Source: Desulfobacterales bacterium (GTDB taxonomy: Bacteria > Desulfobacterota > Desulfobacteria > Desulfobacterales > UBA5852). From it: a DNA stretch of 64,000 bases. Below, one piece after another: positions 16,343-30,804 of the stretch. Below the pieces are notes generated by a model. The model had not been told where the DNA came from. It did no database searches and saw nothing but the letters and a program-made list of their open reading frames with translations. The position numbers and the translations under genes were made by a program. How positions within the stretch are numbered: the first letter of the stretch is position 1; every line of letters begins with the position of its first letter. The DNA lies in assembly GCA_963674755.2 (NCBI GenBank), contig CAXXVS010000001.1, forward strand, positions 704,001-768,000. The letters are read 5' to 3'.

Positions 16343-17450
16343 GGAAAAATACAGGAAAATACAAACCGAGACGGGGATGATCGACCGACTTCGGCAGGGA
16401 AGAGCCGAGTTGTCGCCGTTGTCCCTTCGCTTTATGGAAGTTGCCAAGAATAAGGGCAGGGATTCCGGATACGACGCACTGATTGAAATTTCGTGGCAGA
16501 AGGAAACCGTCAGATTTGCCGTCGAGTGCAAGGCTCTTTCAACCCCTAAAGCCTTTCAATCCGGATTGATTCAACTGAAGTCGTTAAAACTGCCTGAAGG
16601 CGTATTGCCGATGCTGTGCCTGCCTTTTCTCAGTGAAGCCCAGTTGAAACAGTTGGAAAGTGAGGGAATTAGCGGGATCGACTTGTGCGGAAACGCTGTC
16701 GTCATTGCTCCCGGGAAATTTTACGTCTTTCGCACCGGAGGAAAGAACAGATTTCCCTCCTGGGCTCCGATCAAAAATGTTTACCGCAAGAATACCTCGA
16801 TGGTGGGGAGGGTTTTTCTGGCGCGTCCGGAGTATGAAGCTGTCCAGGAGATTCAAAACGAGATCAGCAGGCGAAATCCCCTGGTCGTATTGGGGGACAA
16901 GAAGCCAATTGGCCTTTCAACTGTTTCAAAGGCGTTGAAATCTCTGGAAGAAGACCTCATCGTTGCGCGCAACGGCGGTATTCGCCTTTTACAGGCCGAC
17001 AAGCTTCTAAATAAACTGGCCGTAAATTATGAGCCCCCGCGAGTCGCAGGGCGGGTGCAGATCAAGATTCAAGAAGACCCTGAAACACTCCGTAATCTGG
17101 TGACCGCGGTTTCTCAAAAGACGGGCTTGCCCGTTGTCGCAACAGGAACATCTTCAGTTTCCCGGTACACGGTTATGCCGCGGGGAGATTTGCTTTCAGT
17201 CTACTGCCCCAAATTGGAACCGCTGCGCGTCCTATTGCCGGGCAGCCGGACGGATCGCTTCCCAAATCTCGAGTTGATCGAAGTCGAGGATGAAACGGTC
17301 TATTTCGATGCGCGCCAGGAAGAGGGGTTTTGGTGGGCATCGCCTGTACAGGTCTATCTTGAACTCATGACCGGGGACAAACGGGACCAGGAAACGGCTG
17401 AGCAGTTGAAACCGTCCATTATGAACACTTCTGGATCGATTTCGCGATGA
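16341..17450 (+). CDS. Putative type IV TA (AbiEi-like) antitoxin/regulator
   Basis: N-terminal D...E.K nuclease-like fold (YDALIE...FAVECK), GIDLCGN, HTH (GLSTVSKALKSL), ASPVQVYLEL...RDQETA tail. Confidence 0.65.
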   Translation: MEKYRKIQTETGMIDRLRQGRAELSPLSLRFMEVAKNKGRDSGYDALIEISWQKETVRFAVECKALSTPKAFQSGLIQLKSLKLPEGVLPMLCLPFLSEAQLKQLESEGISGIDLCGNAVVIAPGKFYVFRTGGKNRFPSWAPIKNVYRKNTSMVGRVFLARPEYEAVQEIQNEISRRNPLVVLGDKKPIGLSTVSKALKSLEEDLIVARNGGIRLLQADKLLNKLAVNYEPPRVAGRVQIKIQEDPETLRNLVTAVSQKTGLPVVATGTSSVSRYTVMPRGDLLSVYCPKLEPLRVLLPGSRTDRFPNLELIEVEDETVYFDARQEEGFWWASPVQVYLELMTGDKRDQETAEQLKPSIMNTSGSISR

Positions 17451-17569
17451 ATCGAATCATCGATCTACAGACGGCGCTCCTGGACCTTCTTTACGAAATC
17501 CGAACCACCGGCGAGAAGCTTATTGTCGACGGCGGGTATGGCATTTACCTTCTTTTTCGACCTACCTGA
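17447..17569 (+). pseudogene. Truncated nucleotidyltransferase-like (AbiEii-like) partner
   Basis: ATGA overlap with upstream gene; MNRIIDLQTALLDLL...KLIVDGGYGIYL then stop at 40 aa. Confidence 0.5.
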
Positions 17570-18001
17570 TACATCCCTAACACCCGCATCAAAGCTGCTC
17601 CAGGTTTTATAAGCGATATCCTTGAGATTATGTCATTTTTCTGTTAACGAGGAATATCTCTGCAAACAAGTCGGCATATCCCCCGTCATTCCGCGCCAGC
17701 GGCTGCCTGTGAAATGGTAGAGCGCTCTTTAAGGGCACCATTTCCAGTGCATCAAAATAGATGGTAGGGCGTTATCAACCTAAGACGCCCACCCTGAAAT
17801 TTTATAAACGCATCAAATTGTCGAAAGATTCCATAGGCACTAAGAAATCATACTTTTTTAGGTCGCTTATCCTTAATTTGTAGCCTGGAAATGGTGGATT
17901 TAGGAGGAGATCACAATTTGTGACGACTTCAAAGTAAAAGGCGGAACAATCCAGGATAAAGATAGAATCCAGAATGTTAAGTTGGCCCATCCTTACAGGT
18001 A

Positions 18002-18112
18002 GATATACGCACAATCCAAAATTTGGGTGGGCAAGCGGATTTAGGGGCCACAATGGTCTATACGCATGTGGTAAGCAAAAACAGGCATGGTGTTGTCAGT
18101 CCATTAGACTAA
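18002..18112 (+). pseudogene. intI: Integron integrase C-terminal remnant
   Basis: DIRTIQNLGGQADLGATMVYTHVVSKNRHGVVSPLD*, degenerate box II plus the IntI-typical GVxSPLD tail. Confidence 0.85.
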
Positions 18113-18323
18113 ATTGTCTCAAAATAATTATTTTCCGTTATTATGGTGCAGCATCATAATAACGATAATTGGCGGGAAATGATGCCTTTTCAAAACCTAT
18201 AAAATATGTAATTGTTAAATTAACGAATTGATATTGTGGCATATATGACAATCTGGCGGAACAATAACAAAATTCGTAAAAAGTGTCTCAAAAGTATATT
18301 TTTTGTTAAAAAGATGCCTTCCA

Positions 18324-18342
18324 CATAATATTATAGTTGCGG
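18324..18342 (+). other. Putative attI core, copy 1
   Basis: CATAATATTATAG/TTGCGG; first GTT after intI that pairs with a downstream R'' (CCGCAAC 18650); same 15-mer at 26697. Confidence 0.7.
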
Positions 18343-18454
18343 CCGATCGCCTCAATTTAAAAGCACAAATTGACATAAAAACTAATAAATAAATATCAAA
18401 AGAAAATTAAAAGGAATAAAAAGAAGACAAAAAGTTTTCAGCGATCTTTGGGGG

Positions 18455-18573
18455 GAGGCTGGAAAATTTTCTCGATCTGTGGTAACAGTAATGCACGACA
18501 GCGACAGGGCAACTGTCGTTGGTACTGATCGCTGTCGTGCATTACTGTAGGGACGAAAAAATTATCCAACCTC
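18455..18573. repeat. Long inverted repeat inside an ORF-less cassette, candidate structured RNA/DNA
   Basis: Perfect 20-bp arms 18485-18504 and 18529-18548, with imperfect outer and inner pairing. Confidence 0.85.
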
Positions 18574-18649
18574 GCATTTTCCACTTTTCTACTAGAGACT
18601 ACCGGCAAATATTTCTGAATTTTTGGGCTTGGCTTACAGACCGGCGTCG

Positions 18650-18717
18650 CCGCAACATGTCAACGTACCAGACATCGATCGCTTCGCGTTCGATGCAGGT
18701 AGTTTCCGACATTATAC
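18650..18717 (+). other. attC site 1 (R' G>A variant)
   Basis: CCGCAAC...TACC.GACATCGA/TCGATGC.GGTA...ATTATAC. Confidence 0.75.
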
Positions 18718-18720
18718 TTT

Positions 18721-19383
18721 ATGAACAATATGAAAACATTTATTGGAGTATTAATAATTATGTCGTTGTTTTCATTCACGAATGTTTTTGCGGCAACACC
18801 TGAACAAAAATTCTGGAAATGGTTCGTGAAAAATCAAGGCATATTATTTGAATTTGAAAAAAACAGAGAAAGGATATTTGACAACCTATCCTCTGAAATG
18901 AAAAAGGTACATCCTGATCTTACCTTTGAATTTGGGCCGATACAGGAATCCGGTAAACGAGAGCTTGTTATTAGTGCAGGAGGTATTAAAGACGCTTTTC
19001 CATTCGTTGAGTCTTTGTATGATTCGGCACCCAAACTTTCCAATTGGATTATTATTAAATTCCGGCCCAGGCGAAATCCCCTAAATGACTTAGAATTTGG
19101 TGGCAAGACGATAAAGGCATCTGAAGTTTATTATAAAATGTTTAAAGACCAAGAGAAAGTCGGCCTAATAATTTTTCTTGATGGATATAATGATGCTGAA
19201 AAAGATATTTACGGAAATATTGGTTACCTATTTTTAGACGAGGCATTAGGGGAATATGATATTGAAATGAAAGTCGGCTTCATTGAGTTTCACGGAAGAG
19301 AATCAAAATATTTTGAAGGTTCTCAACCGCTGAGTGAATTGGCTGAACATTTTGACGAATATTTTAAAAATACAATGAATTGA
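18721..19383 (+). CDS. Cassette gene: exported hypothetical protein
   Basis: Signal peptide (VFA-A), FWKWF, RELVISAGG, LDEALGE; bounded by attC sites. Confidence 0.85.
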   Translation: MNNMKTFIGVLIIMSLFSFTNVFAATPEQKFWKWFVKNQGILFEFEKNRERIFDNLSSEMKKVHPDLTFEFGPIQESGKRELVISAGGIKDAFPFVESLYDSAPKLSNWIIIKFRPRRNPLNDLEFGGKTIKASEVYYKMFKDQEKVGLIIFLDGYNDAEKDIYGNIGYLFLDEALGEYDIEMKVGFIEFHGRESKYFEGSQPLSELAEHFDEYFKNTMN

Positions 19384-19384
19384 C

Positions 19385-19445
19385 GTATAACATTTTGCTG
19401 CACGGGAGCGCAAAAAGCGCGCGCCCCGTGAGCAATGCGTTATAC
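19385..19445 (+). other. attC site 2
   Basis: GTATAAC...TTGCTGCACGGG/CCCGTGAGCAA...GTTATAC. Confidence 0.92.
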
Positions 19446-19460
19446 AATCATAGTGATGGT

Positions 19461-19781
19461 ATGAAAAAGACCACAAAAATATGCCCTGATTGTGAAAGGG
19501 AAAACCCTACTGCCCAAAAAAAATGTCAGTTCTGTGGTGCTGTTTTACACTACGGAAAGGATTACTACAAATTAAAAAGTTTTCTCTCGTAGGTCACAAT
19601 TTTCGGCATTTTAACAGGGTGTCTTTATACAAGCCTTTCAAAATCTAAAATTATCGATCCAGCTTTTATTGATAATATTCCGAATTGGGTTTCTTATATA
19701 TTTTGGGGATTTGTAGCTATTGGCGTTCTATGTCGCTTATTAGTTGGCATGGCGGATGTGGACGAAACTTTTATTGAATAA
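19461..19781 (+). pseudogene. Cassette gene: zinc-ribbon + 2-TM protein with in-frame TAG
   Basis: CPDC...CQFC, TAG at 19590, frame stays open through two hydrophobic segments to TAA at 19779. Confidence 0.7.
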
Positions 19782-19787
19782 AACTCT

Positions 19788-19879
19788 GTATAACCTTTCG
19801 CTGTTTCTGAATGTCACGGTATGCAATACTTCGCTTCGCTCAGGCAAGCCGCGCCATCAGAAAAGCTTAGCCGTTGGGT
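19788..19879 (+). other. attC site 3
   Basis: GTATAAC (complements GTTATAC 19439)...GCTGTTTCTGA/TCAGAAAAGC...GTTGGGT. Confidence 0.88.
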
Positions 19880-19890
19880 GAAAAAACAAA

Positions 19891-20721
19891 ATGAACCAAG
19901 ATATCAAATCTATTCTCTATAATATTTTAGGTGGTATAATAGTCTCTGTCCTCACAGTTATTTTTATATCTCTCCGAAAACAATTAAAAAGTTTTCAACT
20001 ACATAGACTTTTAGGATTCTGTTCCCATTCAGGGGACGAACCGAAAATCGTTTATGGTCAACTTGCCTTGCCAAATGTTTTCAAACAAAACGGGCAGGTT
20101 ATTACACATCCCTATGTAAAGCCACCAAGAAACGGTGGAGCAATTCCACTTCAAGGAACATATTCAATAACCCATCCTGTAAGCGAGTGTGAAGTTCGGG
20201 CATCTACATACCTTACTAGTATGCTTTCAAACATAAAAAACACTCATCCACAATTAATTTCTGATGTCGATGCAAATGCAGTCTTAGACAGTAATCTATT
20301 TGCGTTAGGTGGACCAGGGTCAAATTACAAAACAGCAGATATTCTTGCATCACCAGCAAATTTATTTATTCAAATGGCGCATAATGGTTTTTCTTTAATC
20401 TCAGGGGAACATCTGCCCTTTGTCTGTAACCAAACAACTGACTATGGTTTTATTCTACGCATAACTCCCCCTCAATTCCCTAAACGTTCGTGGATTGCAT
20501 GTTCAGGTTTAGGGGAATGGGGTACAAGCGGATCTGCTTGGTTTCTTGCCAACAAATGGAAGTATTTGATGAGAAAAATATCACCTTTTGCCTATTACAT
20601 GGGAATTATGCCTATATGTGATTTTGTTGCAATTATTAAAATTACTCGTGGGCAAGATCAGTCAGCTGAAATAGTCGATGCATACCGAAAATCAGGTAAA
20701 ATGATAAAACGTATAAAATAA
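19891..20721 (+). CDS. Cassette gene: N-terminal TM + unknown alpha/beta domain
   Basis: 276 aa; NLFALGGPGSN, DYGFIL, SGLGEWGT. Confidence 0.85.
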   Translation: MNQDIKSILYNILGGIIVSVLTVIFISLRKQLKSFQLHRLLGFCSHSGDEPKIVYGQLALPNVFKQNGQVITHPYVKPPRNGGAIPLQGTYSITHPVSECEVRASTYLTSMLSNIKNTHPQLISDVDANAVLDSNLFALGGPGSNYKTADILASPANLFIQMAHNGFSLISGEHLPFVCNQTTDYGFILRITPPQFPKRSWIACSGLGEWGTSGSAWFLANKWKYLMRKISPFAYYMGIMPICDFVAIIKITRGQDQSAEIVDAYRKSGKMIKRIK

Positions 20722-20722
20722 C

Positions 20723-20784
20723 ACCCAACATCGGCATTCAGTGGAGCGCAAAAAGCGCGCGCCCACTGATGCCGGGCGTTAGAT
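20723..20784 (+). other. attC site 4
   Basis: ACCCAAC (complements GTTGGGT)...CGGCATTCAGTGG/CCACTGATGCCG...GTTAGAT. Confidence 0.93.
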
Positions 20785-20802
20785 ATCAGGTGTTAATTTA
20801 AA

Positions 20803-21903
20803 ATGTTGCCAAATCAAACATCTATTAAAAATTACAACATCTATACCTACACATTTCTTGATGATTTATCTTTTATAAAAGATCCACACGAATATTTTGA
20901 ACATGAAACAAAAGAGACAATTGAAAATGCTATTGTTTTAGTAGGTGAAAAATTTAAGGAACATGGGTGGGAAGGTGATGGTTCAATTGGAATAATTTGG
21001 CTCCCACCGTTTATAGAAGAGGGAATAGAGGACACTTGGGGAACATACGTTTGGCATGTTAAACAAAATAATGACGGAATATCCTTTATAGCATCTTATG
21101 AACCATTAAATACAAAAAGGCTGGGACAGAACGAGTTTGGACTTTCAAGCGTACCCGGGAGAACGTTAACACCTATAAGCATTATCGAAACCGACGTAGA
21201 GTGGTTTTTGAAAGCAATTGATGGTGTCGAAAATAATTTAAAGGAATCAATAGAATTTTTAGCGATCACGTCATCACATGGTGTTACTGAGACAATTAAA
21301 GCAAATACGAACATTCATTACCAAAGCGTTTTGGTTAGATATTTTCAAGAATTTCTGGATGAGTGTTACCTGCAAATTTTAATTGATGCAATTGAAAATG
21401 GCAATCCACACAAAATTAAATTAAGAAAGTCCCAAATAAAAATTGACCTCGCTTCACATATGCCGGAACCTGATGATGAAGAGGATGATATTGTTGATAC
21501 AGCACTTACTATTAGATTTTTTATAGGTGATATGTGGAAAGCCTATAAATGGGAGCCATTTAAAACCAAAATGGATATGCTGTTTAAAAGTATTGATTAC
21601 AATTTGGATAGCACTTTTTCATATGAAATTAGAAAGCATGTAATTATCAGGAATTGCATGCAGCACCATGAAGGAAGTCTAGATCAAGATTCTTTAAAAC
21701 AGCTTGGAAGACAAAGCATTGAAATGAAGTGTGCCGGTGGAATATACCACATAAAAGTCTGGAAGCCTCTTAAAATTGAAGCAGAAGAAATTTATTCGTT
21801 ATGTGATTTACTTAAGAAATTTGTCGAAGATTTCCATAGACATATTAAGCGCAGGGTGCCTACAGTACATTACATTTCAAGAAAAACCCAACCTGAAACT
21901 TAA
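20803..21903 (+). CDS. Cassette gene: hypothetical protein with HEPN-like RxxxxH motif
   Basis: 366 aa; RNCMQH in a helical C-terminal half. Confidence 0.8.
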   Translation: MLPNQTSIKNYNIYTYTFLDDLSFIKDPHEYFEHETKETIENAIVLVGEKFKEHGWEGDGSIGIIWLPPFIEEGIEDTWGTYVWHVKQNNDGISFIASYEPLNTKRLGQNEFGLSSVPGRTLTPISIIETDVEWFLKAIDGVENNLKESIEFLAITSSHGVTETIKANTNIHYQSVLVRYFQEFLDECYLQILIDAIENGNPHKIKLRKSQIKIDLASHMPEPDDEEDDIVDTALTIRFFIGDMWKAYKWEPFKTKMDMLFKSIDYNLDSTFSYEIRKHVIIRNCMQHHEGSLDQDSLKQLGRQSIEMKCAGGIYHIKVWKPLKIEAEEIYSLCDLLKKFVEDFHRHIKRRVPTVHYISRKTQPET

Positions 21904-22016
21904 GCGGACCGGGAATAGCGGTGCTTTTTTTAAACAATTTACTTGCGTGTTTTTAAATAGTTTTTTACAACCTTTGTCAGGGCTTGTTCCCCGGCCCGCT
22001 TAGTTCATAGTTATGT
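21886..22016 (+). other. attC site 5 (long)
   Basis: ACCCAAC...AACTTAAGCGGACCGGG/CCCGGCCCGCTTAGTT...GTTATGT. Confidence 0.88.
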
Positions 22017-22032
22017 AAAAAGGAAACTATGC

Positions 22033-22419
22033 ATGTCCGATACTTTATTAGGTGTAATTATTGGAGGTCTAATAGCAAGCATTGGCCCATTAATTACTCT
22101 CAAAATGAACCATACGAAATGGAAGTGTGAAAAAAAACTCGAATACCTTAAGGAAAAGAGAAACAAGTTAGAAAAAGCATGTTCTGGAACACTAACAAAA
22201 ATTGCGGAAGGTATACTAAAGAATAATTATTCGTCCGATATGATGAGTGATATTGATTTTTTATTTCCTGAGAAGGTTTCAAAAGCATTTGAAAATCTGA
22301 TGAAAGAAGATGATAAAACAGAGCTTAAAATGCAAAAACATTATTATCTTATTGCTCGTGCTATGAAACAATCCATCGCAGAATTGGATGAAGATATTTG
22401 TAAAATTATATCTACATAG
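22033..22419 (+). CDS. Cassette gene: TM-anchored helical hypothetical protein
   Basis: 128 aa, AGGA RBS; cassette bounded by GTTATGT and ACATAAC. Confidence 0.85.
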   Translation: MSDTLLGVIIGGLIASIGPLITLKMNHTKWKCEKKLEYLKEKRNKLEKACSGTLTKIAEGILKNNYSSDMMSDIDFLFPEKVSKAFENLMKEDDKTELKMQKHYYLIARAMKQSIAELDEDICKIIST

Positions 22420-22454
22420 TTTAATACGATTTATTTATGGTGTACTCATAATGC

Positions 22455-22652
22455 ACATAACAATCTAATCAACCGGAACCTGAACAGGGTCGCATCTTAA
22501 TTATTAACTATTGACATCTGCTCTATATCAGTTCGTTATACCGACGGACGATTCCGAAATAGAGTGAGGCAAATAGAACGTCGTATAATTAGGATTCGAC
22601 CCTCTTTATCTCCCAAACTATGTGTAGCGTCTGCTTATGGCCATCGTTATAA
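22455..22652 (+). other. Disrupted attC site 6, split by a type A element
   Basis: R'' ACATAAC at 22455 and R' GTTATAA at 22646 separated by the 22487-22602 element. Confidence 0.7.
22487..22602. mobile_element. Type A palindromic miniature element, copy 1
   Basis: GGGTCGCATCTTAATTA...TAATTAGGATTCGACCC; near-identical to copies 2 and 3. Confidence 0.8.
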
Positions 22653-22667
22653 CTTAAAGGAAATAAC

Positions 22668-23162
22668 ATGGATATAGGAAAGCTACTGTCAGATTTAAAA
22701 GGGAAGGTATTAGATGCCTCCCATTTTGATCTTCTAAGGCATGCATACGATCTGCAAGAGCAAAATATCGTACAACTTAAGAGCAATAATGCCGCGTTAA
22801 AGGAAAGCAACGATTTATTAAAAGACAAGCTTTCTTCTTACGTTAAAAAAATTGAAGATCTCGAAGAGGAAAATTCAAAACTTACCAAGCAAGTCATATC
22901 GCAATCAAATTCTAAATCAGAAAAAATTGTTTTGTCTGATAGTGCAATAGCAGTGCTAAAAAAGATCGTACAAGAAGATGTCACTGATTTTTATCAAAAT
23001 GCCATTATTGATGTTCTGGGGATGGGTAGAATAGCGACCCAAGCTGCACTTGATGAATTATCTGAAAAGGGCCTTATTGATTGCATGTCAGCAAGGCCTG
23101 GGTATGGCTTGCATTATCATCTAACAAGCAAAGCGAAGAAAGCGCTAACCAGTGTAGTATAG
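22668..23162 (+). CDS. Cassette gene: coiled-coil + winged-helix-like protein
   Basis: Heptad-rich N-half; ALDELSEKGLI...YHLTSKA wHTH-like tail. Confidence 0.8.
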   Translation: MDIGKLLSDLKGKVLDASHFDLLRHAYDLQEQNIVQLKSNNAALKESNDLLKDKLSSYVKKIEDLEEENSKLTKQVISQSNSKSEKIVLSDSAIAVLKKIVQEDVTDFYQNAIIDVLGMGRIATQAALDELSEKGLIDCMSARPGYGLHYHLTSKAKKALTSVV

Positions 23163-23206
23163 TTATAATACATAAAGATTGAAACGACCTAAATAGGAAA
23201 GTATTT

Positions 23207-23329
23207 GGGTCGCATCTTAATTATTAACTATTAACATCTGTCCTATATCAGTTCGCTATACCAACTGACGATTTCGAAATAGAGTGAGGCAAATAAAACA
23301 TCGTATAATTGATAATTAAGATGCAATTC
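23207..23329. mobile_element. Type A palindromic miniature element, copy 2
   Basis: Same left end and core; right end TAATTAAGATGCAATTC degenerate. Confidence 0.8.
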
Positions 23330-23377
23330 TCTTTATCACCCTTTTTATGAATAATATGAATAAAAGGAGAAATCGGC

Positions 23378-23641
23378 ATGTATGCAATGTTATCACTTGA
23401 TTTAGACAGAAAAACCACAAAGGAACAGCGTGATAAGTTCTATGCATATTTGAAGAAGGAACTGTGGACAAAGATGCCGAAAGTGACTACAACATGGTAT
23501 GCTGACTTTTCAACTGGTGTTACGGAATCTGGGGTTATTTCAACAACAAAAGCTGACGTTGCAAATGCTGCGAAACATGCTGGTGTCACTGCATATGATG
23601 CTGTTGTTCATGTTGGACCATCTAAACCAACACCATTCTAA
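23378..23641 (+). CDS. Small hypothetical protein (possible VapD/Cas2-like ferredoxin fold)
   Basis: 87 aa, AGGAG RBS; MYAMLSLDLD start; fold guess is weak. Confidence 0.75.
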   Translation: MYAMLSLDLDRKTTKEQRDKFYAYLKKELWTKMPKVTTTWYADFSTGVTESGVISTTKADVANAAKHAGVTAYDAVVHVGPSKPTPF

Positions 23642-23705
23642 AGAAAGGCCAAATAGGAACCTGAATAGGGTCACCCATTAAAAGACTCGTCAAAGGTGTT
23701 CTGAG

Positions 23706-24623
23706 ATGAAAGAAACATGTCCAATCTGCAATAACCAAATGAACTACACTTCGATTGGTAGCCGGGATGCTTCCTCAATAACTTGTGAGATATGCGGTGA
23801 ATATATTTTAACAAGAACAGCTTTAGTGAATTTAAGAAGCTCTAATTTGACGCCACGCCAAAGAGCGAATATTTATGGATGGTTGAGGATGAATCCGCAT
23901 TTCGAAATATCAACCGCTAATATTGATAGCCTTGAGAGACTCCCGAATCCATCCTTTCATGACAGAGCAGATAATTTGTTGTTGTATTTTGAAAATTTGA
24001 CGTCATACGCTGGGAAAAAACTCAATAAAAACAATTCATGGCTGGGTTTCTCTTCGAGTCTTAATCAAGATGAACTTAATGAAACAATTTCTTTCCTTGA
24101 ATCTGTAGGTCGTATTAGCCAAGAAAAAGTTGCTCCAAATCACCTTATCAAAATTGAGCCACAAGGGTGGTCTCATTTAGAAAAGATCAAGAAGATAAAT
24201 GAAGATAGTAATCAAGGATTTGTTGCAATGTGGTTTTCTGAAGATATGCAGAAAATTTACGATAGTGTTATATCAAAAGCAATTCTATCAGCTGGTTACT
24301 CGCCGCATCGTGTAGACCAGCGTGAGCACAATAATAAAATTGATGATGAAATCATTGCACAGATACGGAAAAGCCGGTTTGTTATAGCAGATTTCACTGG
24401 GCATAGAGGTGGTGTTTATTTCGAAGCTGGTTTTGCTAAAGGCCTAAATATCGAAGTGTTTTGGACATGTCGAGAAGATGATCTCGAAAATTTGCACTTT
24501 GACGTGAGGCAATATAACTGCATCACTTGGGAAATCGATAAATTGAATGAATTTGAAAATAAAATCAAAAATAGAATAGAAGCAGTTTTAGGGAGGGGCT
24601 CAGGACCAGGTATCGCCTTTTGA
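23706..24623 (+). CDS. Zn-ribbon + nucleoside 2-deoxyribosyltransferase/TIR-like protein
   Basis: CPIC...CEICG; FVAMWF, IDDEIIAQIRKSRFVIADFT..RGGVYFEAGFA, LHFD. Confidence 0.8.
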   Translation: MKETCPICNNQMNYTSIGSRDASSITCEICGEYILTRTALVNLRSSNLTPRQRANIYGWLRMNPHFEISTANIDSLERLPNPSFHDRADNLLLYFENLTSYAGKKLNKNNSWLGFSSSLNQDELNETISFLESVGRISQEKVAPNHLIKIEPQGWSHLEKIKKINEDSNQGFVAMWFSEDMQKIYDSVISKAILSAGYSPHRVDQREHNNKIDDEIIAQIRKSRFVIADFTGHRGGVYFEAGFAKGLNIEVFWTCREDDLENLHFDVRQYNCITWEIDKLNEFENKIKNRIEAVLGRGSGPGIAF

Positions 24624-24663
24624 CAATTTTTATATAAGGGAACCTGAATAGGAGAAAGTGTTG

Positions 24664-24786
24664 GGGTCGCATCTTAATTATTAACTATTGACATCTGCCC
24701 TATATCAGTTCGCTATACAGACCGACAATTCCGAAATAGAGTGAGGCAAATAAAACATCGTATAATTACTAATTAAGATCCGACCC
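24664..24786. mobile_element. Type A palindromic miniature element, copy 3 (most intact)
   Basis: 25-bp terminal inverted repeats with 3 mismatches. Confidence 0.82.
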
Positions 24787-24987
24787 TCGTTCCCTCTCCA
24801 GTGCATCAGAGTGCACTTTGTACTGTTTTAAGACGCTGTTTAGAGCACCAAATCATGCCCCGTAAATTGATGAGATTTGTTACTGATTATAAACTAATAT
24901 CTCAATATTTATACATTTCACGGAGAGAATAAAAAATCAGTTTTGCGGTCTAGGGCACAGGAAATGTGGCATTTGCCTTAAAATTTC

Positions 24988-25009
24988 GGTTCTCTAAACT
25001 AGGTTAGAA
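24988..25009 (+). other. Second, different attI-like site
   Basis: CTCTAAACTAGG/TTAGAA with no attC hairpin upstream; GTTAGAA complements TTCTAAC at 25454. Confidence 0.5.
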
Positions 25010-25022
25010 CAGCAAAATAGGA

Positions 25023-25448
25023 TTGAACATAGTGGATTGGAAAAAGTTCATAGAAGACTTATTAAAGTATGCAATTGTAATCGCCCCTGTTATTCTTTCT
25101 GCAGTTTTGGGCTATCTTTTTGCAAAATTTAGGGCCTTTCGTGAAGAAAAACAGAAAGCTTATAGTGAACTGCTACCTATCATAGTCAAGATGCTATATG
25201 ACCCTCAACCTGAAATCGAATCGGAATTTAGTAGATCATTAATGAAATTATGGCTCTATGCAAACAAGCGCGTAGCGAAAAAGTTAGATCATGCTATTGG
25301 ACTTTTTCATAAACCTGATAAACGAAATGAAGTTACCAAGGCTCTTCAAGAGGCGATAGTCGAAATGCGCAAGGATATACAAATTTTGCCTTGGCAAAGG
25401 TTGAAGCCTGATGATGTTCGTCATCTTTATACTAAAATTTCAAAATGA
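25023..25448 (+). CDS. Cassette gene: TM-anchored helical hypothetical protein
   Basis: 141 aa; LWLYANKRV...AIVEMRKDI. Confidence 0.8.
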   Translation: MNIVDWKKFIEDLLKYAIVIAPVILSAVLGYLFAKFRAFREEKQKAYSELLPIIVKMLYDPQPEIESEFSRSLMKLWLYANKRVAKKLDHAIGLFHKPDKRNEVTKALQEAIVEMRKDIQILPWQRLKPDDVRHLYTKISK

Positions 25449-25453
25449 AGTTG

Positions 25454-25520
25454 TTCTAACATTTTGCTTCACCAGATTCGGGCCAAAAAGCGGCCCTCTC
25501 TGGTGAGCAATTCGTTATGG
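25454..25520 (+). other. attC site
   Basis: TTCTAAC...TTGCTTCACCAGA/TCTGGTGAGCAA...GTTATGG. Confidence 0.92.
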
Positions 25521-25530
25521 ATCTAAAGAG

Positions 25531-25682
25531 ATGACAGATACTAAAACCACAGAATCGCAGGAAGGCGAATCTACAAAATTCGAGTCAACTCCAAATATTG
25601 GAATAGAGAAAGAGACTTATGGAATAGAACCTAAACATTTATCCACCCAAAAAGATGACAAAAAATGCAAGGAAGGTCTAAT
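25531..25682 (+). pseudogene. Cassette gene truncated by a type B element
   Basis: ORF starts just after GTTATGG and runs into the 25683 palindrome. Confidence 0.55.
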
Positions 25683-25744
25683 GGGGTCAAGTCTGCCCAT
25701 GACTCAATTAAATTTCAAGATGAGTCATGAGCAGACTTGACCCC
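25683..25744. mobile_element. Type B 62-bp palindromic element, copy 1
   Basis: GGGGTCAAGTCTGCCCATGACTC-N16-GAGTCATGAGCAGACTTGACCCC. Confidence 0.82.
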
Positions 25745-25780
25745 AAGACCACAAGAATAGACCCTAAGAATGCAAAAAAT

Positions 25781-26173
25781 ATGACCAAACGAAATATTGT
25801 ATATTTAATCATATCCGTTATTATCTTTCTGCCTCTTTTAAGCTATGCCATTAATCCATTACACAAGTCGCCTGACAAAATAAAAAATAAACTTATTAAA
25901 AAAACTAAAATAGGTTTTACAAAAGAAAAGGTGAAAGAAATCGGGAAGGCCCAGCTGAATTTAATTTTGAGAGAAGATGAGTATGGACCTCCTGATAGAG
26001 AAATGGTGATCCCTTTCAAAGATATCCTTCATACCTACTTAGAAGCTGAATTAGGATCTCATTTTTCACATGATTACTTTGTTTTTAGAACCTATGTTTA
26101 TGCCTATTGGGTGTTCGATAGAAATGATAAACTTATAGATATATTGATCTATAAAGAAACTGACGCCCTATAA
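25781..26173 (+). CDS. Cassette gene: exported hypothetical protein
   Basis: Hydrophobic N-terminus; YAYWVFDRNDKLIDILIYKETDAL; followed by attC. Confidence 0.75.
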   Translation: MTKRNIVYLIISVIIFLPLLSYAINPLHKSPDKIKNKLIKKTKIGFTKEKVKEIGKAQLNLILREDEYGPPDREMVIPFKDILHTYLEAELGSHFSHDYFVFRTYVYAYWVFDRNDKLIDILIYKETDAL

Positions 26174-26181
26174 AAATTCAG

Positions 26182-26243
26182 ACATAACCTGCTGCTGGTT
26201 GGGACGCGCAGGGGCTGCGCGCCCCACATCAGAGGCGCTAAAA
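26182..26243 (+). other. attC site ending in a GCT core
   Basis: ACATAAC...GGGACGCGCAG/CTGCGCGCCCC...GCTAAAA. Confidence 0.8.
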
Positions 26244-26620
26244 AAAATTTTCTCAATATCACTTCCCGAGATGGGGGTTTGCGGATTAAATACCCGGTAT
26301 TCCTCATAACGTCTCTGCAGCACAGGCCATTAACCACCATGCTCAACGGCACCCACTTTTTACTGACCTACACCTGCAACTTCGAATGCGACCACTGCTT
26401 TCTGTATTGCAGCCCATGGTCGAAGGGGACGTTTAGCATCGGTCAGGTGACGCGGGTGCTGGACGAGGTTCGGAAGATCGGCACGGTGGAATGGATTTTT
26501 TACGAGGGCGGCGAACCGTTTCTCTTCTACCCGCTGCTGTTGGAGAGTGTCCACCGGGCGGCGGAACGCGGGTTCAAGGTGGGAATCGTGACCAACGCCT
26601 AAACGTTGAGGCAAGGTGAA
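26241..26620 (+). repeat. ~380-bp direct repeat, copy 1, with radical SAM 5' stub (26339-26602)
   Basis: Near-identical to 30423-30804; CNFECDHC and YEGGEP motifs, then a premature stop. Confidence 0.92.
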
Positions 26621-26625
26621 GTAAT

Positions 26626-26687
26626 GGGGTCAAGTCTTCCCATGACTCAATTAAATTTCAAGATGAGTCATGAGCAGACTTGACCCC
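26626..26687. mobile_element. Type B 62-bp palindromic element, copy 2
   Basis: One substitution versus copy 1; both preceded by TAAT and followed by AAGACC. Confidence 0.82.
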
Positions 26688-26696
26688 AAGACCCCT

Positions 26697-26715
26697 CATA
26701 ATATTATAGTTGGAC
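26697..26715 (+). other. Putative attI core, copy 2
   Basis: CATAATATTATAG/TTGGAC; 15 nt identical to 18324-18338. Confidence 0.7.
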
Positions 26716-26722
26716 TAAAAAA

Positions 26723-27331
26723 ATGCCAAATTGTGATTACTATGGAACAATTGATGATCATGGAGATATATTAGAATTTCTATTTTCCGAAAATTTATGT
26801 GATATATTTGAATTGTATTCTGAGGTTGAAAGGCCTTTAAAAAAATTCAATTCACCTGAAGAAGTTCTAAGTCAATTTTCAAGATGTTATACAACAGGAA
26901 AAAAATGGCATACTGTTTACTTGCAGCTTTATGTAAAAGGGGCTGGACCAGATTTTAAGCCAACACTTAAAGAGTTGGTGCCTGAAAAAAATGATGGAGC
27001 TACTTTCAAATATAGGGCAGAAGGATGGGGATTGATTCAATTATATCTTTCTACGACAGTTGATAAGATATTACGTGATTCGCACTCAAATCATAATACT
27101 GAAAAACGAGCTAATAAATGGTCAAGTATCTGTAGTGAGTTAGAGGATCCTTCACTTTGGGACTTTTCAAAAATTACGAAATTCTCATCGCGGCTTAATC
27201 GGCAAATAAGAAAGAAGAAGGTGGCAAAATTAAATAGCCGCGTGGTGCTACCAGGCGGTTTAAAAGCATGGGATGAAGGGTGTACTCTGGCTCCATATCA
27301 TCCGGATAAGCATGAAATTGAAAGACTGTAA
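26723..27331 (+). CDS. Cassette gene: hypothetical protein
   Basis: 202 aa; EGWGLIQLY, SHSNHNTEKRA; bounded by GTTGGAC and GTCCAAC. Confidence 0.85.
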   Translation: MPNCDYYGTIDDHGDILEFLFSENLCDIFELYSEVERPLKKFNSPEEVLSQFSRCYTTGKKWHTVYLQLYVKGAGPDFKPTLKELVPEKNDGATFKYRAEGWGLIQLYLSTTVDKILRDSHSNHNTEKRANKWSSICSELEDPSLWDFSKITKFSSRLNRQIRKKKVAKLNSRVVLPGGLKAWDEGCTLAPYHPDKHEIERL

Positions 27332-27344
27332 ATTGTTAATCAGA

Positions 27345-27412
27345 GTCCAACAATTGGTTCCAGGTGACGCATTCCGCTGCGCTGCATGCGCCCCTGAACC
27401 ATAGCGTTGGGT
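27345..27412 (+). other. attC site
   Basis: GTCCAAC...TGGTTCCAGG/CCTGAACCA...GTTGGGT. Confidence 0.92.
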
Positions 27413-27427
27413 CAATAGGAATAAGTA

Positions 27428-28297
27428 ATGTTAAAGAAATTCGTAGATGGACTAATATTTGGTGCAGGCTTCGGCATTACATTCGTAGCGATTTTGTTCG
27501 CTTCCATATATTTCATATTACCAACTTTAGCAAAGAAATCATTTAATTCTTTAACTCCAACATCTCAAAACACCTTAGCAACTGTGCCAGCTATCGAGGC
27601 ACCAAAAACTCGCTATCTTGGTTCCACCAACATATCTTCAAGTGGTTTTACTCAAAAAGGAATACTGGCTACCGGTGATGGAAAAATAATAGGTAGTGCT
27701 ACAACCAACGGGAAGCTCCTCAATGGCCTAAAACTCCGATTAGCATTGAACGGTAGTGTTTATAGCTCTTGGGCTACCACTGATTTAGCAGGCGAATATA
27801 CAGTTAAAGTGCCTTACGGTGACTATATTATAGACGGTTTTGAATTTGATAAAACAACGGCTGATGAATTGTTGCCGAATATGATCTTACATCCTCAAAA
27901 CCCGCATTCGAGTAACAAATTTCAAGTAAATTCGTTGTCAGAGGGACGAGGCCTAACCTTTAAATTTGTAAATCCAATTATGAAGAAAATCAAAAAAAGC
28001 AAATTTAGTTCCGACGAGGATGTCATACTTGAATGGGAAGATTACCCAAATGCATCAAGCTATACTTTGCAAATTGATGAGAAATCTGATCCCTATTCTT
28101 GGGCGAGCGACCACTTATTTGAATGGTCTGATAGACCTGAAGTTTCAAAGTCGCATATTAACTTAAGTGAATACAAAATAAAATTGAAGCCTGGGAATTT
28201 TTATACAATAGATATTAGCGCCAAAGACAAAAACGGGAATTGGATATCAGAAAGTGCAAGAAACTACTCTGGCTATGATTTCGAAATTATAAAATAG
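27428..28297 (+). CDS. Cassette gene: membrane-anchored beta-sandwich protein
   Basis: N-terminal TM; ATTDLAGEYTV and LEWEDYPNASSY FN3-like patterns. Confidence 0.85.
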   Translation: MLKKFVDGLIFGAGFGITFVAILFASIYFILPTLAKKSFNSLTPTSQNTLATVPAIEAPKTRYLGSTNISSSGFTQKGILATGDGKIIGSATTNGKLLNGLKLRLALNGSVYSSWATTDLAGEYTVKVPYGDYIIDGFEFDKTTADELLPNMILHPQNPHSSNKFQVNSLSEGRGLTFKFVNPIMKKIKKSKFSSDEDVILEWEDYPNASSYTLQIDEKSDPYSWASDHLFEWSDRPEVSKSHINLSEYKIKLKPGNFYTIDISAKDKNGNWISESARNYSGYDFEIIK

Positions 28298-28307
28298 AAT
28301 TCATGCG

Positions 28308-28362
28308 ACCCAACATTGGGCTGTTGCCGACTCGGTTCCCTCGCGGCAAAGCTCTGGCGCTA
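28308..28362 (+). other. Last attC site, R' box interrupted by a group II intron
   Basis: ACCCAAC (complements GTTGGGT)...GCTGTTGCCG/CGGCAAAGC...GCTA then intron. Confidence 0.85.
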
Positions 28363-30420
28363 TCGCGCCGAGCAAAGCTCGGCGCATCTTGCAGGGTGTA
28401 AGTCCCTGCCGGGAGAGAGTCGGCAACGGCTTTCTGTAAGGGTTAGCCCCCCACCCGTATCGAGCCTTGGGTCCATGGCGGAGATGCTTTCTGATCATTG
28501 TAAGTGCTGGAAGCCGCTGTATTGGCTGGAAACGAGCCGCGACCCGGGAGACCGGTGGCATTCGCGGATGGTCTCACCCCACTGAACGAACAATGGAGCA
28601 GAGGTATCGAACAAGATGGGCTAAGCGTAGGCAGAGAATCCTGTAGGCCGTAGGGGAGACCGCGCTCCCTGAAGAGCTGGTACAGCTTCGAAATAGCAAT
28701 TGCGGACGCCGAGGGTTTTAACGTGCACCGAAGGCAACACAGAAGCATCCGTTACAGGCGAGGATGTGAAGGTCCGCCGGAGTCATCAGGCCGTGGCATG
28801 CAGGAAGAGATGCGCTGTAGAACTCGGGAAGCCCCAGAGGCTCCTGTGGGGAAGGAATCCGCAGGTGGGAGCGGAGACGCTCTACATGCCGATGGGGTGT
28901 CTTATCAGGCATACTACTCAGCGGTGGGGAAAGCCCACTACACGGGGAAGGACCTGACGGAAGTACGCAGCCTGCAAAGGAAACTCGTACCGGACAAAGT
29001 CGGGCTGGAGCAATACGAGCCAACCTCCCTGCAGGGGATAGCAACGAAGGCGGAAGTACGAACAGCACACCGTTTTCAGGATCTGTACCGGTGTCTAAAC
29101 GCCCGATTTTTGGCAGACTGCTGGAAGGATTTGAACAAAGATGCGGCCAGCGGAATCGATCAAGTGACGGCGGAGGCCTACGAGGAGAATCTTGAGGCCA
29201 ATATCAAGGCACTGGAAAAGCGCCTGAGACAAAAGCGGTACCGCGCCAAATTGGTGCGGCGATGTTACATTCCTAAGGGCAATGGGGAAGAGAGGCCACT
29301 TGGCATACCGGCACTTGAGGACAGATTGTTGCAGTTAGCGTGTGCCAAGATTTTAACATCGATTTTCGAATCGGATTTTGTAGAGACCAGTTACGCTTAT
29401 CGTCCCAAACGAAGCGCCAAAGAGGCAATAGAAGATTTGCAGTTCAATCTTCAGTTTGGGAAGTTTGGCTACATTGTCGAGGCTGATATACAAGGCTTTT
29501 TCGACAATATTGACCATGACTGGGTTTTACGGATGCTCCGGGAGCGGATTGATGACGCGGCGTTTCTAACCCTGCTCGGCAAGTGGCTGAAGGCTGGGGT
29601 ACTGGATACGGATGGTAAGGTGATTCATCCGGAGTCGGGAACGCCGCAAGGCGGGAGCGTATCGCCGGTACTGGCAAACGTATATCTGCATTTTGCTCTG
29701 GATCTGTGGTTTGAAAAGCGTGTGAAGGCGCAGAGTTGTGGTGAGGCGTTTATTCTCAGGTACGCCGATGACTTCATATGCGCCTTTCGCTATCGCGATG
29801 ACGCCGAGAGGTTCTATCATGAGCTGCCCAATCGGTTGAGCAAGTTCAAACTCGCGGTGGCACCCGAGAAGAGCGAAATGATACGTTTCAGCCGCTTTCA
29901 TCCAGGGATGCAAAGCCGGATCATGTTTTTAGGCTTTGAGGCCTATTGGATGGAAGACCCCAAGGGTGCGGTTAAAGTGAGACTGCGAACGGCCCGCAAG
30001 AAGCTGCACGATGCCTGCCGACGCATCAAGGGGTGGATAAAGGAGAACCGTCATCTGAAGGGGGCAAACTTTATAAGAGCGCTGAACCGGAGGTTGCAGG
30101 GCCATTACAATTACTTCAATGTGCCCGGCAACTTGAATTCGTTGTGGCGTTTTTACCGCTGGTCAGTGGACTGTGCATTCAAATGGCTGAACCGGCGAGG
30201 GGGAAAGCGTAAAAGCTTTACCTGGAAAGTGTTCACACGCGCCATAGACCGGTTAGGTGTCGCCAAGCCCCAAATGGAGATGGTCAACCGAAAACATCGC
30301 GTGTTTGTATAGTGCAAAGGCCTTACGCGGAAGCGAGTACAACCGAGGAACCGGATGCGGGAAAACCGCACGTCCGGGTCTGTGCGGGGGGCGCTGGGTA
30401 ACCGGCGTTCCTACCGTGAG
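28363..30420 (+). mobile_element. Group II intron (bacterial class E-like); ends +/-2 nt
   Basis: TCGCG 5' end with hairpin; domain V GAACCGGATGCGGGAAAACCGCACGTCCGGGTC; domain VI with bulged A; RT ORF; empty site visible at 26237. Confidence 0.9.
28723..30312 (+). CDS. ltrA: Group II intron reverse transcriptase/maturase, no En domain (true start probably near 29020)
   Basis: ASGIDQVT, YIPK..GEERPLGIP, DIQGFFDNI, GTPQGG, RYADDF, GHYNYF. Confidence 0.93.
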   Translation: MHRRQHRSIRYRRGCEGPPESSGRGMQEEMRCRTREAPEAPVGKESAGGSGDALHADGVSYQAYYSAVGKAHYTGKDLTEVRSLQRKLVPDKVGLEQYEPTSLQGIATKAEVRTAHRFQDLYRCLNARFLADCWKDLNKDAASGIDQVTAEAYEENLEANIKALEKRLRQKRYRAKLVRRCYIPKGNGEERPLGIPALEDRLLQLACAKILTSIFESDFVETSYAYRPKRSAKEAIEDLQFNLQFGKFGYIVEADIQGFFDNIDHDWVLRMLRERIDDAAFLTLLGKWLKAGVLDTDGKVIHPESGTPQGGSVSPVLANVYLHFALDLWFEKRVKAQSCGEAFILRYADDFICAFRYRDDAERFYHELPNRLSKFKLAVAPEKSEMIRFSRFHPGMQSRIMFLGFEAYWMEDPKGAVKVRLRTARKKLHDACRRIKGWIKENRHLKGANFIRALNRRLQGHYNYFNVPGNLNSLWRFYRWSVDCAFKWLNRRGGKRKSFTWKVFTRAIDRLGVAKPQMEMVNRKHRVFV

Positions 30421-30422
30421 AT

Positions 30423-30804
30423 AAAAAAATTTCTTCTCAATATCACTTCCCGAGATGGGGGCTTGCGGATTAAATACCCGGTATTCCTCATAACGTCTCT
30501 GCAGCACAGGCCATTAACCACCATGCTCAACGGCACCCACTTTTTACTGACCTACACCTGCAACTTCGAATGCGACCACTGCTTTCTGTATTGCAGCCCA
30601 TGGTCGAAGGGGACGTTTAGCATCGGTCAGGTGACGCGGGTGCTGGACGAGGTCCGGAAGATCGGCACGGTGGAATGGATTTTTTACGAGGGCGGCGAAC
30701 CGCTTCTCTTCTACCCGCTGCTGTTGGAGAGTGTCCGCCGGGCGGCGGAACGCGGGTTCAAGGTGAGAATCGTGACCAACGCCTAAACGTTGAGGCAAGG
30801 TGAA
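30423..30804 (+). repeat. ~380-bp direct repeat, copy 2, with radical SAM 5' stub (30523-30786)
   Basis: Near-identical to 26241-26620. Confidence 0.92.

Follow-up and report, generated by a model that had tools for sequence, protein, structure and literature searches.

Integron arrays are host to several kinds of mobile element, among them group IIC-attC introns, IS1111-attC elements and MITE-bounded integron mobilisation units, and these either target attC or bracket whole integrons. The TIRYT/TIRtron class, with a GGGGWSAS motif in its arms and with TIR repeats that occur singly, as dimers or in groups, was described by Di Nocera et al. (2013; PMC3733652), and the Bac_DnaA_C tail of its subclass 2.1.2 by Quentin et al. 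(2018; PMC6006769), with the sections of both papers drawn on here describing no biochemistry for a TIRYT enzyme.

The repeats considered here lie between the genes of an integron cassette array in a 64,000-nucleotide stretch of DNA from a Desulfobacterales bacterium, referred to as the window. A sequence-only reading had put them forward as a candidate for an undescribed system. They belong, however, to the TIRYT/TIRtron class, already in print together with its TIR repeats in the sections cited above, and this bears out the core of that reading, in which a Y1 HUH enzyme serves a non-autonomous element.

Organization of the array and its repeats

The relevant features of the window are the following.

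17981..18112, + strand: tyrosine recombinase remnant, C-terminal part only (…DIRTIQNLGGQADLGATMVYTHV…SPLD*); it lies upstream of the array, and stop codons precede it
19384..28451, + strand: cassette array, 36% GC, with every gene on the + strand
19384-19449, 19786-19883, 20720-20788 and 21898-22010: first four attC-type hairpins
22475..22614, + strand: copy 1, a type-A miniature element with a 7-nt deletion in the right arm; left extension GGAACCTGAACA at 22475-22486, arms and core at 22487-22602, right extension at 22603-22614
23185..23341, + strand: copy 2, in which the right arm has diverged over its outer 6 nt; CGACCTAAATAGG and a second, diverged left extension at 23185-23206, arms and core at 23207-23329, right extension at 23330-23341
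23656..23676, + strand: solo stub; left extension GGAACCTGAATA, the arm's first five bases GGGTC, then ACCC
24639..24799, + strand: copy 3, the best kept, with a right arm of 22/25; GGAACCTGAATAGG and a second left extension at 24639-24663, arms and core at 24664-24786, right extension at 24787-24799
25453-25524, 26180-26247, 27344-27416 and 28306-28451: last four attC-type hairpins
25682..25745, no strand assigned: arm doublet of family 2, a second TIRYT family (GGGGTCAAGTCTGCCCATGAC, 25-nt arms, 14-nt loop)
26625..26688, no strand assigned: the family-2 doublet again, closing a duplicated segment of 383 bp
28425..30421, + strand: group II intron on the 3' side of the last attC, with an RT/maturase ORF at 28723-30312

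The recombinase remnant matched PF00589 with an E-value of 0.0099 and 16.1 bits, under the cut-off, and is probably a decayed integron integrase. Eight attC-type hairpins flank the stretch from about 22450 to 25450, and within it no canonical attC was found with the weak detectors at hand, which agrees with the earlier description of two of its genes, at 23378 and 23706, as lacking attC. R1, a covariance model trained on five attCs of the window, recovered only that training set and two weak rows, and was too narrow for a survey of other islands. A genome-wide structural attC scan recovered two of the eight window sites and is therefore unfit for claiming that attC is absent.

All three repeats lie between cassette genes in one orientation, as had been reported. 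Their description as near-identical did not hold, copy-to-copy identity being 74-88% ungapped and about 84-93% gapped. They had also been described as elements of about 120 bp with 25-bp inverted repeats, and the left half of this stands: the 25-nt left arm GGGTCGCATCTTAATTATTAACTAT is identical at 25/25 positions in copies 1, 2 and 3, where no match would be expected by chance. The right arm, in contrast, lies within three mismatches in copy 3 only, and since 12-nt extensions on both sides are common to the copies, the conserved unit is one of about 148 bp (12-nt extension, 25-nt arm, 73-nt core, 25-nt arm and 12-nt extension). The motif ACCTRAAYAGG is present at 22478, 23187, 23659 and 24642 against an expectation of 0.01, and the extra site at 23659 is followed by GGGTC and ACCC, both as previously noted. 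This motif was considered as a target or as part of attC, and the idea was dropped when alignment identified it as a variant of the 12-nt left extension; ACCTGAACAGG forms the left extension in copy 1 and precedes a second, diverged extension copy in copies 2 and 3. The stub at 23656..23676 is either what remains of a copy since lost or a duplicated junction, and comparable stubs adjoin arms in other genomes.

Type-A copies are located 20-25 nt past a stop codon and are co-directional with the genes, the three window copies and three copies on contig C2 having the orientation of their neighbouring genes; this could reflect function, strand bias or chance. Inspection of the flanks revealed no target-site duplication at any of six type-A copies, which bears out the earlier observation, and the tandem duplications that occur at arm edges are one-sided only and often accompanied by a GGTC stub. 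With regard to the earlier proposal that copy 1 splits an attC, the copy lies between an ACATAAC box and a GTTATAA box separated by 198 bp and is flanked by an 8-bp inverted repeat, but no pairing of L boxes was apparent by eye. Copy 3 is bordered by AGGGAAC (24639-24645) and GTTCCCT (24790-24796) boxes. A diversity-generating (DGR) reading of the locus, with template and variable repeats close to the reverse transcriptase, was rejected, as the differences show no restriction to adenine, the repeats lie outside genes and the reverse transcriptase is that of the group II intron.

The arms enclose a Y1 transposase in other genomes

Among 41 genomes of relatives (that of the window, G000, included), eight gave matches at E<=0.001. 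A unit of 1.04-1.14 kb with a Y1 (HUH) transposase gene between the arms was found in a genome of the same genus, in one of the same order and in six public places, as the sequence-only reading had predicted. L019, the same-genus genome, has an ORF of 326 aa enclosed by arms at 1505 and 2619, the product of which matches PF01797 (Y1_Tnp, 9.2e-16) and PF08299 (Bac_DnaA_C, 8.2e-8), and in the same-order genome (L033) a full-length homologue of 57% identity lies between the arms. Deletion derivatives with gene fragments (L021, 440 bp; L031, 625 bp; L027, 360 bp) and miniature forms (L023, L032, L030 and L018) were also identified.

The 20-nt arm occurs in at least 128 stretches of public genomes, with record titles spanning several phyla. 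From the 80 loci fetched, it was possible to identify six places at which arm pairs of 1039-1139 bp surround a full-length homologue of 46-58% identity (L089/090, L104, L106/107, L120/121, L127/128 and L147), and 12 further contigs with arm pairs of 58-418 bp. Every 1.0-1.1 kb arm pair fetched contained the transposase, and no foreign cargo was found between any arm pair of the 80 loci, which held the transposase or its remains only. The forms thus far described make up a size series with shared 25-31-nt arms, from autonomous (1.04-1.14 kb) to internally deleted (360-625 bp) to miniature (58-225 bp). Six of six aligned proteins share, without variation, the HYH of the HUH motif and the catalytic Tyr within RYIHxNP, and the transposase found no counterpart in a PDB sequence search. 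Read by eye, the inner edge of the arm carries TTGACA in autonomous copies, with a good -10 after it. The 12-nt extensions are kept among window-type copies yet absent from autonomous units, a pattern that a simple arm-to-arm mobile unit would not account for.

Copies and enzymes in the genome of the window

Further type-A copies are found at C2:1564054 and about C2:1572426, with a partial one at C2:1569683. Of 17 family-1 arm matches (up to three mismatches) in this genome, 11 fall in AT-rich islands that account for 5.3% of it, a strong enrichment, and both arm families are mostly confined to this approximately 5%, which includes integron arrays. The 73-nt type-A core was found only here and in one congener, so that the history of the copies is thin. 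Two metagenome scans for this core gave no matches and one chance match without arms, respectively. For family 2, a cognate transposase gene is present between matching arms at C1:916398-917357, and the same TIRYT layout therefore occurs inside this organism. An ESM Atlas search with the 78-aa type-B ORF gave no usable lead.

A cognate transposase for the window repeats was not found in this genome, the best homologues being 37-41% identical and each having different arms, nor was any family-1 arm pair about 1.1 kb apart. Judged from these paralogues, the window copies are probably orphans, and mobilisation in this strain may never have happened. No empty site, circle or polymorphism was seen. 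Contigs of three sequencing runs, all of one study, break at the repeats and contain no supported empty-site joint, the single joint (23689->24662; depth 2.8, side 21) being weak. Orthologues were also used to look for an empty site, but 12 congeners have no close counterpart of the C2 host gene in its 3' part.

Origin and significance of the repeats

We interpret the repeats as worn, non-coding arm doublets of a TIRYT/TIRtron-type element, with a probability of roughly 85%. Given that their arms bracket a Y1 gene in related genomes, they were likely moved in trans by such a Y1 (HUH) enzyme, which the own genome seemingly no longer encodes. The enzyme would bind the arms, probably via its DnaA_C-type HTH tail, and would nick single-stranded DNA at or beside the outer GGGTC, a site suggested by analogy with IS200/IS605 and RAYT enzymes as well as by the GGTC stubs and the flank duplications at arm edges. 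The window copies may have inserted between genes of the cassette array, in AT-rich DNA that tolerates insertions, or may have come with cassettes, and would now be immobile passengers, the long hairpins of which may incidentally end or stabilise transcripts in the manner of REP sequences.

The sequence-only reading went further, proposing that the elements attack attC hairpins and, with the Y1 enzyme, add or remove genes as a second, integrase-independent means of cassette capture. Such a role is suggested by the co-oriented copies just past stop codons in a four-gene stretch without canonical attC, by copy 1 lying between attC-like boxes, by the likeness of the arm-gene-arm segment 22487-23329 to the autonomous arm-transposase-arm layout and by the enrichment of two arm families in AT-rich islands, some with attC-like hairpins, while the junction stubs and flank duplications mark arm edges as active break or join points. 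Targeting of attC is, however, contradicted by the copy at about C2:1572429, which overlaps the stop codon at the 3' end of a host-GC ORF of 658 aa with no attC, and by a copy in genome G004 that is surrounded by high-GC DNA. The weak detectors gave no convincing attC matches in the other islands with type-A copies, and the family-2 doublets inspected lie beside attC sites, never inside them. Capture of genes is likewise opposed by the absence of anything but transposase or its remains from the fetched arm pairs, by the damaged right arm of two of the three window copies and by the missing cognate enzyme. Homologues of the 305-aa gene, present in 19 of 401 genomes (G000 included; best 54%), have other neighbours, with no arms visible in the flanks inspected. 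It is thus very unlikely that the repeats capture cassettes. Just as improbable is a wider version in which TIRYT-type arms are specialised colonisers of integron arrays and AT-rich islands, with an enzyme that would lift arm-gene-arm segments as single-stranded DNA and so shuffle cassettes without integrase, leaving the GGTC stubs and one-sided duplications as footprints.

Somewhat less doubtful, although still improbable, is a co-option of the repeats by the host as RNA signals, the hairpins of which would end or stabilise promoterless cassette transcripts and thereby keep the copies co-oriented at gene ends. Their constant placement past stop codons would be accounted for, REP sequences have a role in termination and mRNA stability according to the part of PMC3733652 used here, and the long hairpin folds reach z-scores of -3.97 on the + strand and -4.03 on the - strand. 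Against this, copies 2 and 3 score only -1.02 and -1.54 on the + strand, the window elements gave no promoter-like site in a promoter scan, and no Rfam family matched at the repeats, either in a gathering scan of the window or in E-value scans of 17400-28800 and nine other loci. Only one terminator-like site was found, at 23185-23212, where the left extension of copy 2 passes into its arm; none was seen at copies 1 and 3, and a single site is no more than chance would produce. Decay of the arms argues against selection on the hairpin, and six copies at two loci carry no statistical power. A reading of the repeats as attC sites of an unusually long class, or as sites of another recombinase, that delimit cassettes in place of attC is hardly credible. 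In its favour, they form imperfect palindromes, about 150 bp long, where genes of an integron array meet, and copy 3 has its AGGGAAC/GTTCCCT boxes. This pair is found in one copy only, however, the ends are GGGTC/GACCC and not RYYYAAC/GTTRRRY, model R1 does not match the repeats, and, as judged by record titles, these arms surround a transposase gene in several phyla.

As arm doublets of a TIRYT/TIRtron-type element, the repeats are of a kind that is already known, and nothing found points to a new gene-capture system. They provide a clear example of a little-studied class, with a full decay series that begins at the autonomous unit and runs down to a doublet of 58 bp. The one-sided duplications and GGTC stubs at arm edges suggest the likely nicking site of TIRYT enzymes, and the arm-edge and island observations could guide a biochemical test. 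For annotation, they are a caution that palindromic repeats between cassettes are not necessarily attC sites.

Comparison with known systems

With IS200/IS605 elements, the repeats and their enzyme share the HUH/Tyr catalytic core (PF01797), the lack of target-site duplication and a presumed action on single-stranded DNA. Those elements, however, have subterminal hairpins and no terminal inverted repeats in the part of PMC6006769 cited here, and NF033573 is matched only weakly (E 1.4e-4 with a paralogue). Classical MITEs of DDE elements differ in having the flanking target-site duplication that the window repeats lack. Integron attC sites differ in their ends, those of the repeats being GGGTC/GACCC, with box-like heptamers flanking copies 1 and 3 only and at different distances. 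As with the mobile elements known from arrays, this is small mobile DNA between cassettes, but it bears no sign of attC specificity.

REPIN-RAYT systems (Bertels and Rainey, 2011; PMC3116915) are closer, in that, as far as covered here, two inverted units and a spacer form one long non-autonomous hairpin, and the repeats flank the gene of an associated Y1 HUH transposase. The window arm, though, lacks a GTAG tag and contains no more than a weak palindrome (TTAATTATTAA), unlike the GTAG-tagged short (20-40 bp) palindromic REP, and the L019 enzyme fails the RAYT model NF047646 (REP_Tyr_transpos; 72.9 bits against a cut-off of 80). The enzyme family is also multi-copy here, with arms across several phyla by record title, whereas RAYTs are single-copy and vertically inherited in the accounts drawn on.

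The closest match is to TIRtron/TIRYT elements, as described in the sections of PMC3733652 and PMC6006769 used here. Differences are that the own genome has no cognate gene, that the window type-A doublets have conserved 12-nt extensions outside the arms, and that a bias to AT-rich islands and integron arrays is seen here, of which those sections make no mention. The window arm reads GGGGTCGC ((G)GGGTCGC), agreeing with GGGGWSAS at 7/8 positions, and other families in the own genome have arm starts GGGGTCAA and GGGGACGY. Shared with the published elements are a Y1 HUH gene of about 1 kb between long inverted repeats starting GGGG(T/A)(C/G), a C-terminal Bac_DnaA_C-type HTH in the encoded protein, arms that also occur solo, as doublets and in groups, and several paralogous genes per genome, each with arms of its own.

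The repeats and their conserved unit

What the sequence-only reading observed is largely right. Its three repeats (type A) do exist, and their left 25-nt arm is identical in all three, where chance would yield none.

Type-A repeats, coordinates in the window, extensions included
22475–22614, + strand, copy 1
23185–23341, + strand, copy 2
24639–24799, + strand, copy 3

The motif ACCTRAAYAGG was likewise confirmed at its four sites, against 0.01 expected. The whole copies are less alike than "near-identical" suggests, their ungapped identity being 74–88%; a right arm with three or fewer mismatches is kept by copy 3 alone, that of copy 1 lacking 7 nt and that of copy 2 having diverged over its outer 6 nt. 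When the window copies were aligned with others, three on contig 2 and one in a congener, the conserved unit proved to exceed the arms by a 12-nt extension on each side, GGAACCTGAATA or GGGATAAGATTG with variants on the left and TCTTTNTCTCCC on the right, the two being partially complementary. ACCTRAAYAGG is this left extension, and in copies 2 and 3 it precedes a second, diverged one. As originally noted, no target-site duplication flanks any type-A copy.

A search with copy 3 recovered more type-A copies and single arms elsewhere in the same genome, and the arm was present in 7 of the 40 relatives searched. Among all loci examined, the type-A core turned up in this genome and one congener only, and a search of the metagenome collection did not find it.

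A Y1 transposase between the arms

The predicted Y1_Tnp gene bracketed by the element's own inverted repeats was found in a same-genus genome, where a single ORF lies between inverted arms spaced 1.1 kb apart. The encoded protein combines a Y1_Tnp domain (9.2e-16) with a tail of the Bac_DnaA_C helix-turn-helix type (8.2e-8); on the REP-associated tyrosine transposase model it reaches 72.9 bits, slightly short of the 80-bit cut-off. Between arms of the same family (family 1), other relatives carry a full-length homolog with 57% identity, partial units (625, 440 and 360 bp) that retain gene pieces only, and miniature elements measuring 225, 147 and 130 bp. A 20-nt arm scan, with one genome per species, returned at least 128 stretches, by record title mostly from Desulfobacterota, with some from Brocadia and other Planctomycetota, Bacteroidales, Anaerolineales and Patescibacteria. 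Among 80 loci examined, arm pairs of 1039–1139 bp surround a full-length homolog in six places, twelve further contigs have pairs of 58–418 bp, and many arms are solitary. All six aligned transposases share the HYH motif and the RYIHxNP tyrosine without variation, and every frame is open. Such a decay series is what one would expect when an autonomous element gives rise to non-autonomous forms. The first half of the mechanism proposed earlier, a REPIN-like, non-autonomous element belonging to a Y1 HUH transposase, is right.

The genome under study encodes at least eight full-length paralogs (37–41% identical to the congener's enzyme), each between arms of its own starting GGGGTC or GGGGAC. One of these, C1:916398–917357 (C1:916347–917379 with arms), carries the family-2 arms, which have 38 matches in the genome and form the 62-bp hairpin doublets (GGGGTCAAGTCTGCCCATGAC) at 25682–25745 and 26625–26688 of the window. 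Because no paralog in this genome has GCATCTTAATTATTAA arms, no pair of such arms about 1.1 kb apart was found there and two of the three right arms are damaged, the window copies are probably orphans.

The integron-type array

The window spans C1:704001–768000. Its region 17.5–28.3k has a GC content of 36%, compared with 58% genome-wide, and all genes of that region lie on the + strand. Eight intergenic sites there fold into attC-type hairpins that end in AAC…GTT and contain bulged bases.

Features of the array and its end
19384–19449, 19786–19883, 20720–20788, 21898–22010, intergenic, attC-type hairpins
25453–25524, 26180–26247, 27344–27416, 28306–28451, intergenic, attC-type hairpins
28425–30421, group II intron (RF02005, 89 bits) lying on the 3' side of the final attC hairpin, with RT/maturase ORF 28723–30312

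Upstream lies a 43-codon open stretch ending …DIRTIQNLGGQADLGATMVYTHV…SPLD*, with stop codons ahead of it; its similarity to the Phage_integrase model is weak and covers the final 26 positions of that model (E 0.0099, below cut-off). Since it combines eight attC-type hairpins with a recombinase remnant, the island is an integron-type cassette array with a probably decayed integrase, in keeping with the intI loss assumed previously. A point in favour of the sequence-only reading is that the weak detectors used found no canonical attC among the four genes lying between 22.45k and 25.45k.

The intron's position 3' of an attC is typical of attC-associated class C introns. A 383-bp duplication (98%; 26239–26620 and 30422–30804) contains the 5' portion of a truncated radical SAM gene; its first copy begins directly after an attC and stops at a family-2 doublet, and its second begins directly after the intron, which suggests rearrangement at the array end. 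A perfect palindrome with 20-bp arms (ACAGTAATGCACGACAGCGA…TCGCTGTCGTGCATTACTGT; 18484–18547), unrelated to the arm families studied, separates the recombinase remnant from the first cassette. The cassette genes at 23706–24623 and at another locus of the genome (L061, 8273–9391) have a weak nucleoside 2-deoxyribosyltransferase-like domain (PF05014, 5.5e-5, below cut-off) preceded by a zinc-ribbon-like N-terminus. Such domains are frequent in anti-phage defence genes.

Further integron-type arrays with attC-like hairpins occur at C2:2330052–2339894, adjoining an intact 445-aa tyrosine recombinase, at C3:1409428–1420980, adjoining a 96-aa tyrosine recombinase fragment, and at C3:2472988–2478310. 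A small ORF family of about 77 aa when intact (MNSITKWLTDPDAADYPFPYQIGDRLRS…NAKY…; 78 aa at L061 9444–9677, 77 aa at locus L051), for which no Pfam match was found, occurs at C2:1185900–1192200 (L061 7900–14150), C1:1287000–1291000 and C2:706000–709000 and in relatives (loci L048–L058). These ORFs, the majority truncated, come after successive genes in AT-rich islands adjoining tyrosine recombinase genes, and 25–50 nt upstream of every copy lies an arm from one of three different TIRYT families (TIRYTs being transposases of the kind described here).

Placement, gene capture and arm edges

Also in favour of the sequence-only reading, placement of the arms in this genome is far from random. Local 5-kb GC is below 0.48 at 11 of 17 family-1 matches and at 21 of 38 family-2 matches, against 5.3% of genome positions; the matches are clustered, those of family 1 at about 12 loci. 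This bias could reflect targeting of AT-rich or hairpin-prone DNA, accessory DNA tolerating insertions, or arms arriving together with cassettes. Attack on attC hairpins, as the sequence-only reading proposed, runs contrary to the evidence: the copy at C2:1572429 starts within the last codons of a 658-aa ORF of host GC with no attC near, and the congener's copy lies in high-GC DNA between an apparent recombinase gene end (sequence by eye) and a RAYT-like ORF. The latter, of 186 aa and classical type (…DHLHCIW…YIHWNPVKHG…; L018 1712–2272), is 65 nt downstream of that copy. The family-2 doublets inspected stand beside attC sites, not within them. Copy 1 may split an attC, as the sequence-only reading has it: the distance there between an ACATAAC and a GTTATAA box is 198 bp, and the unit is bordered by an 8-bp inverted repeat, but no L-box pairing was seen. 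No convincing attC was found in other copy-bearing AT-rich islands with two weak detectors, a covariance model that recovered its training set only and a structural scan that recovered two of the eight window sites.

Gene capture by the repeats was not supported, none of the arm pairs among the 80 loci enclosing foreign cargo. In no relative were the genes lying between the window copies found again together with arms, and no empty site was supported in contigs from three runs of one study, which break at repeats.

At 22 of 140 distinct arm ends, the outer 8 nt adjoining the arm have a further copy (≤1 mismatch) no more than 34 nt upstream, against 398 of 20000 random positions (2%). These one-sided tandem duplications comprise the 8–13 nt outside the arm, and in 8 of the 22 the first arm bases (GGTC…) stand between both flank copies. 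This recurrence marks the outer GGGTC as a break and join point. Nicking by the Y1 enzyme at that point would fit the duplications; hairpin-induced replication slippage would also yield them. In copies 2 and 3, the doubling of the left extension (23185–23206, 24639–24663) looks like the same phenomenon. At 23656–23676, a left extension is followed by GGGTC and ACCC; this may be the remnant of a lost copy, as proposed earlier, but a single case cannot establish excision.

No Rfam family matched the repeats, a scan found no promoter-like site within the window elements, and strong hairpin folds are limited to certain copies and strands; the repeats may have a REP-like influence on transcripts.

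Comparison with known elements

RAYT-like genes with long flanking terminal inverted repeats have been named TIRtrons and their enzymes TIRYTs, with an arm motif GGGGWSAS and arm repeats occurring as singles, dimers and groups (Di Nocera et al., 2013, PMC3733652); most TIRYTs were assigned to subclass 2.1, whose subgroup 2.1.2 has a Bac_DnaA_C-like tail (Quentin et al., 2018, PMC6006769). The window elements fit this class, the relatives' Y1 gene sitting between the same arms and having a Bac_DnaA_C tail. Their kind is therefore already known, and the suggestion of an undescribed system gives way to membership of the published TIRtron/TIRYT class. The window repeats are ordinary, decaying members of this known though little-studied class.
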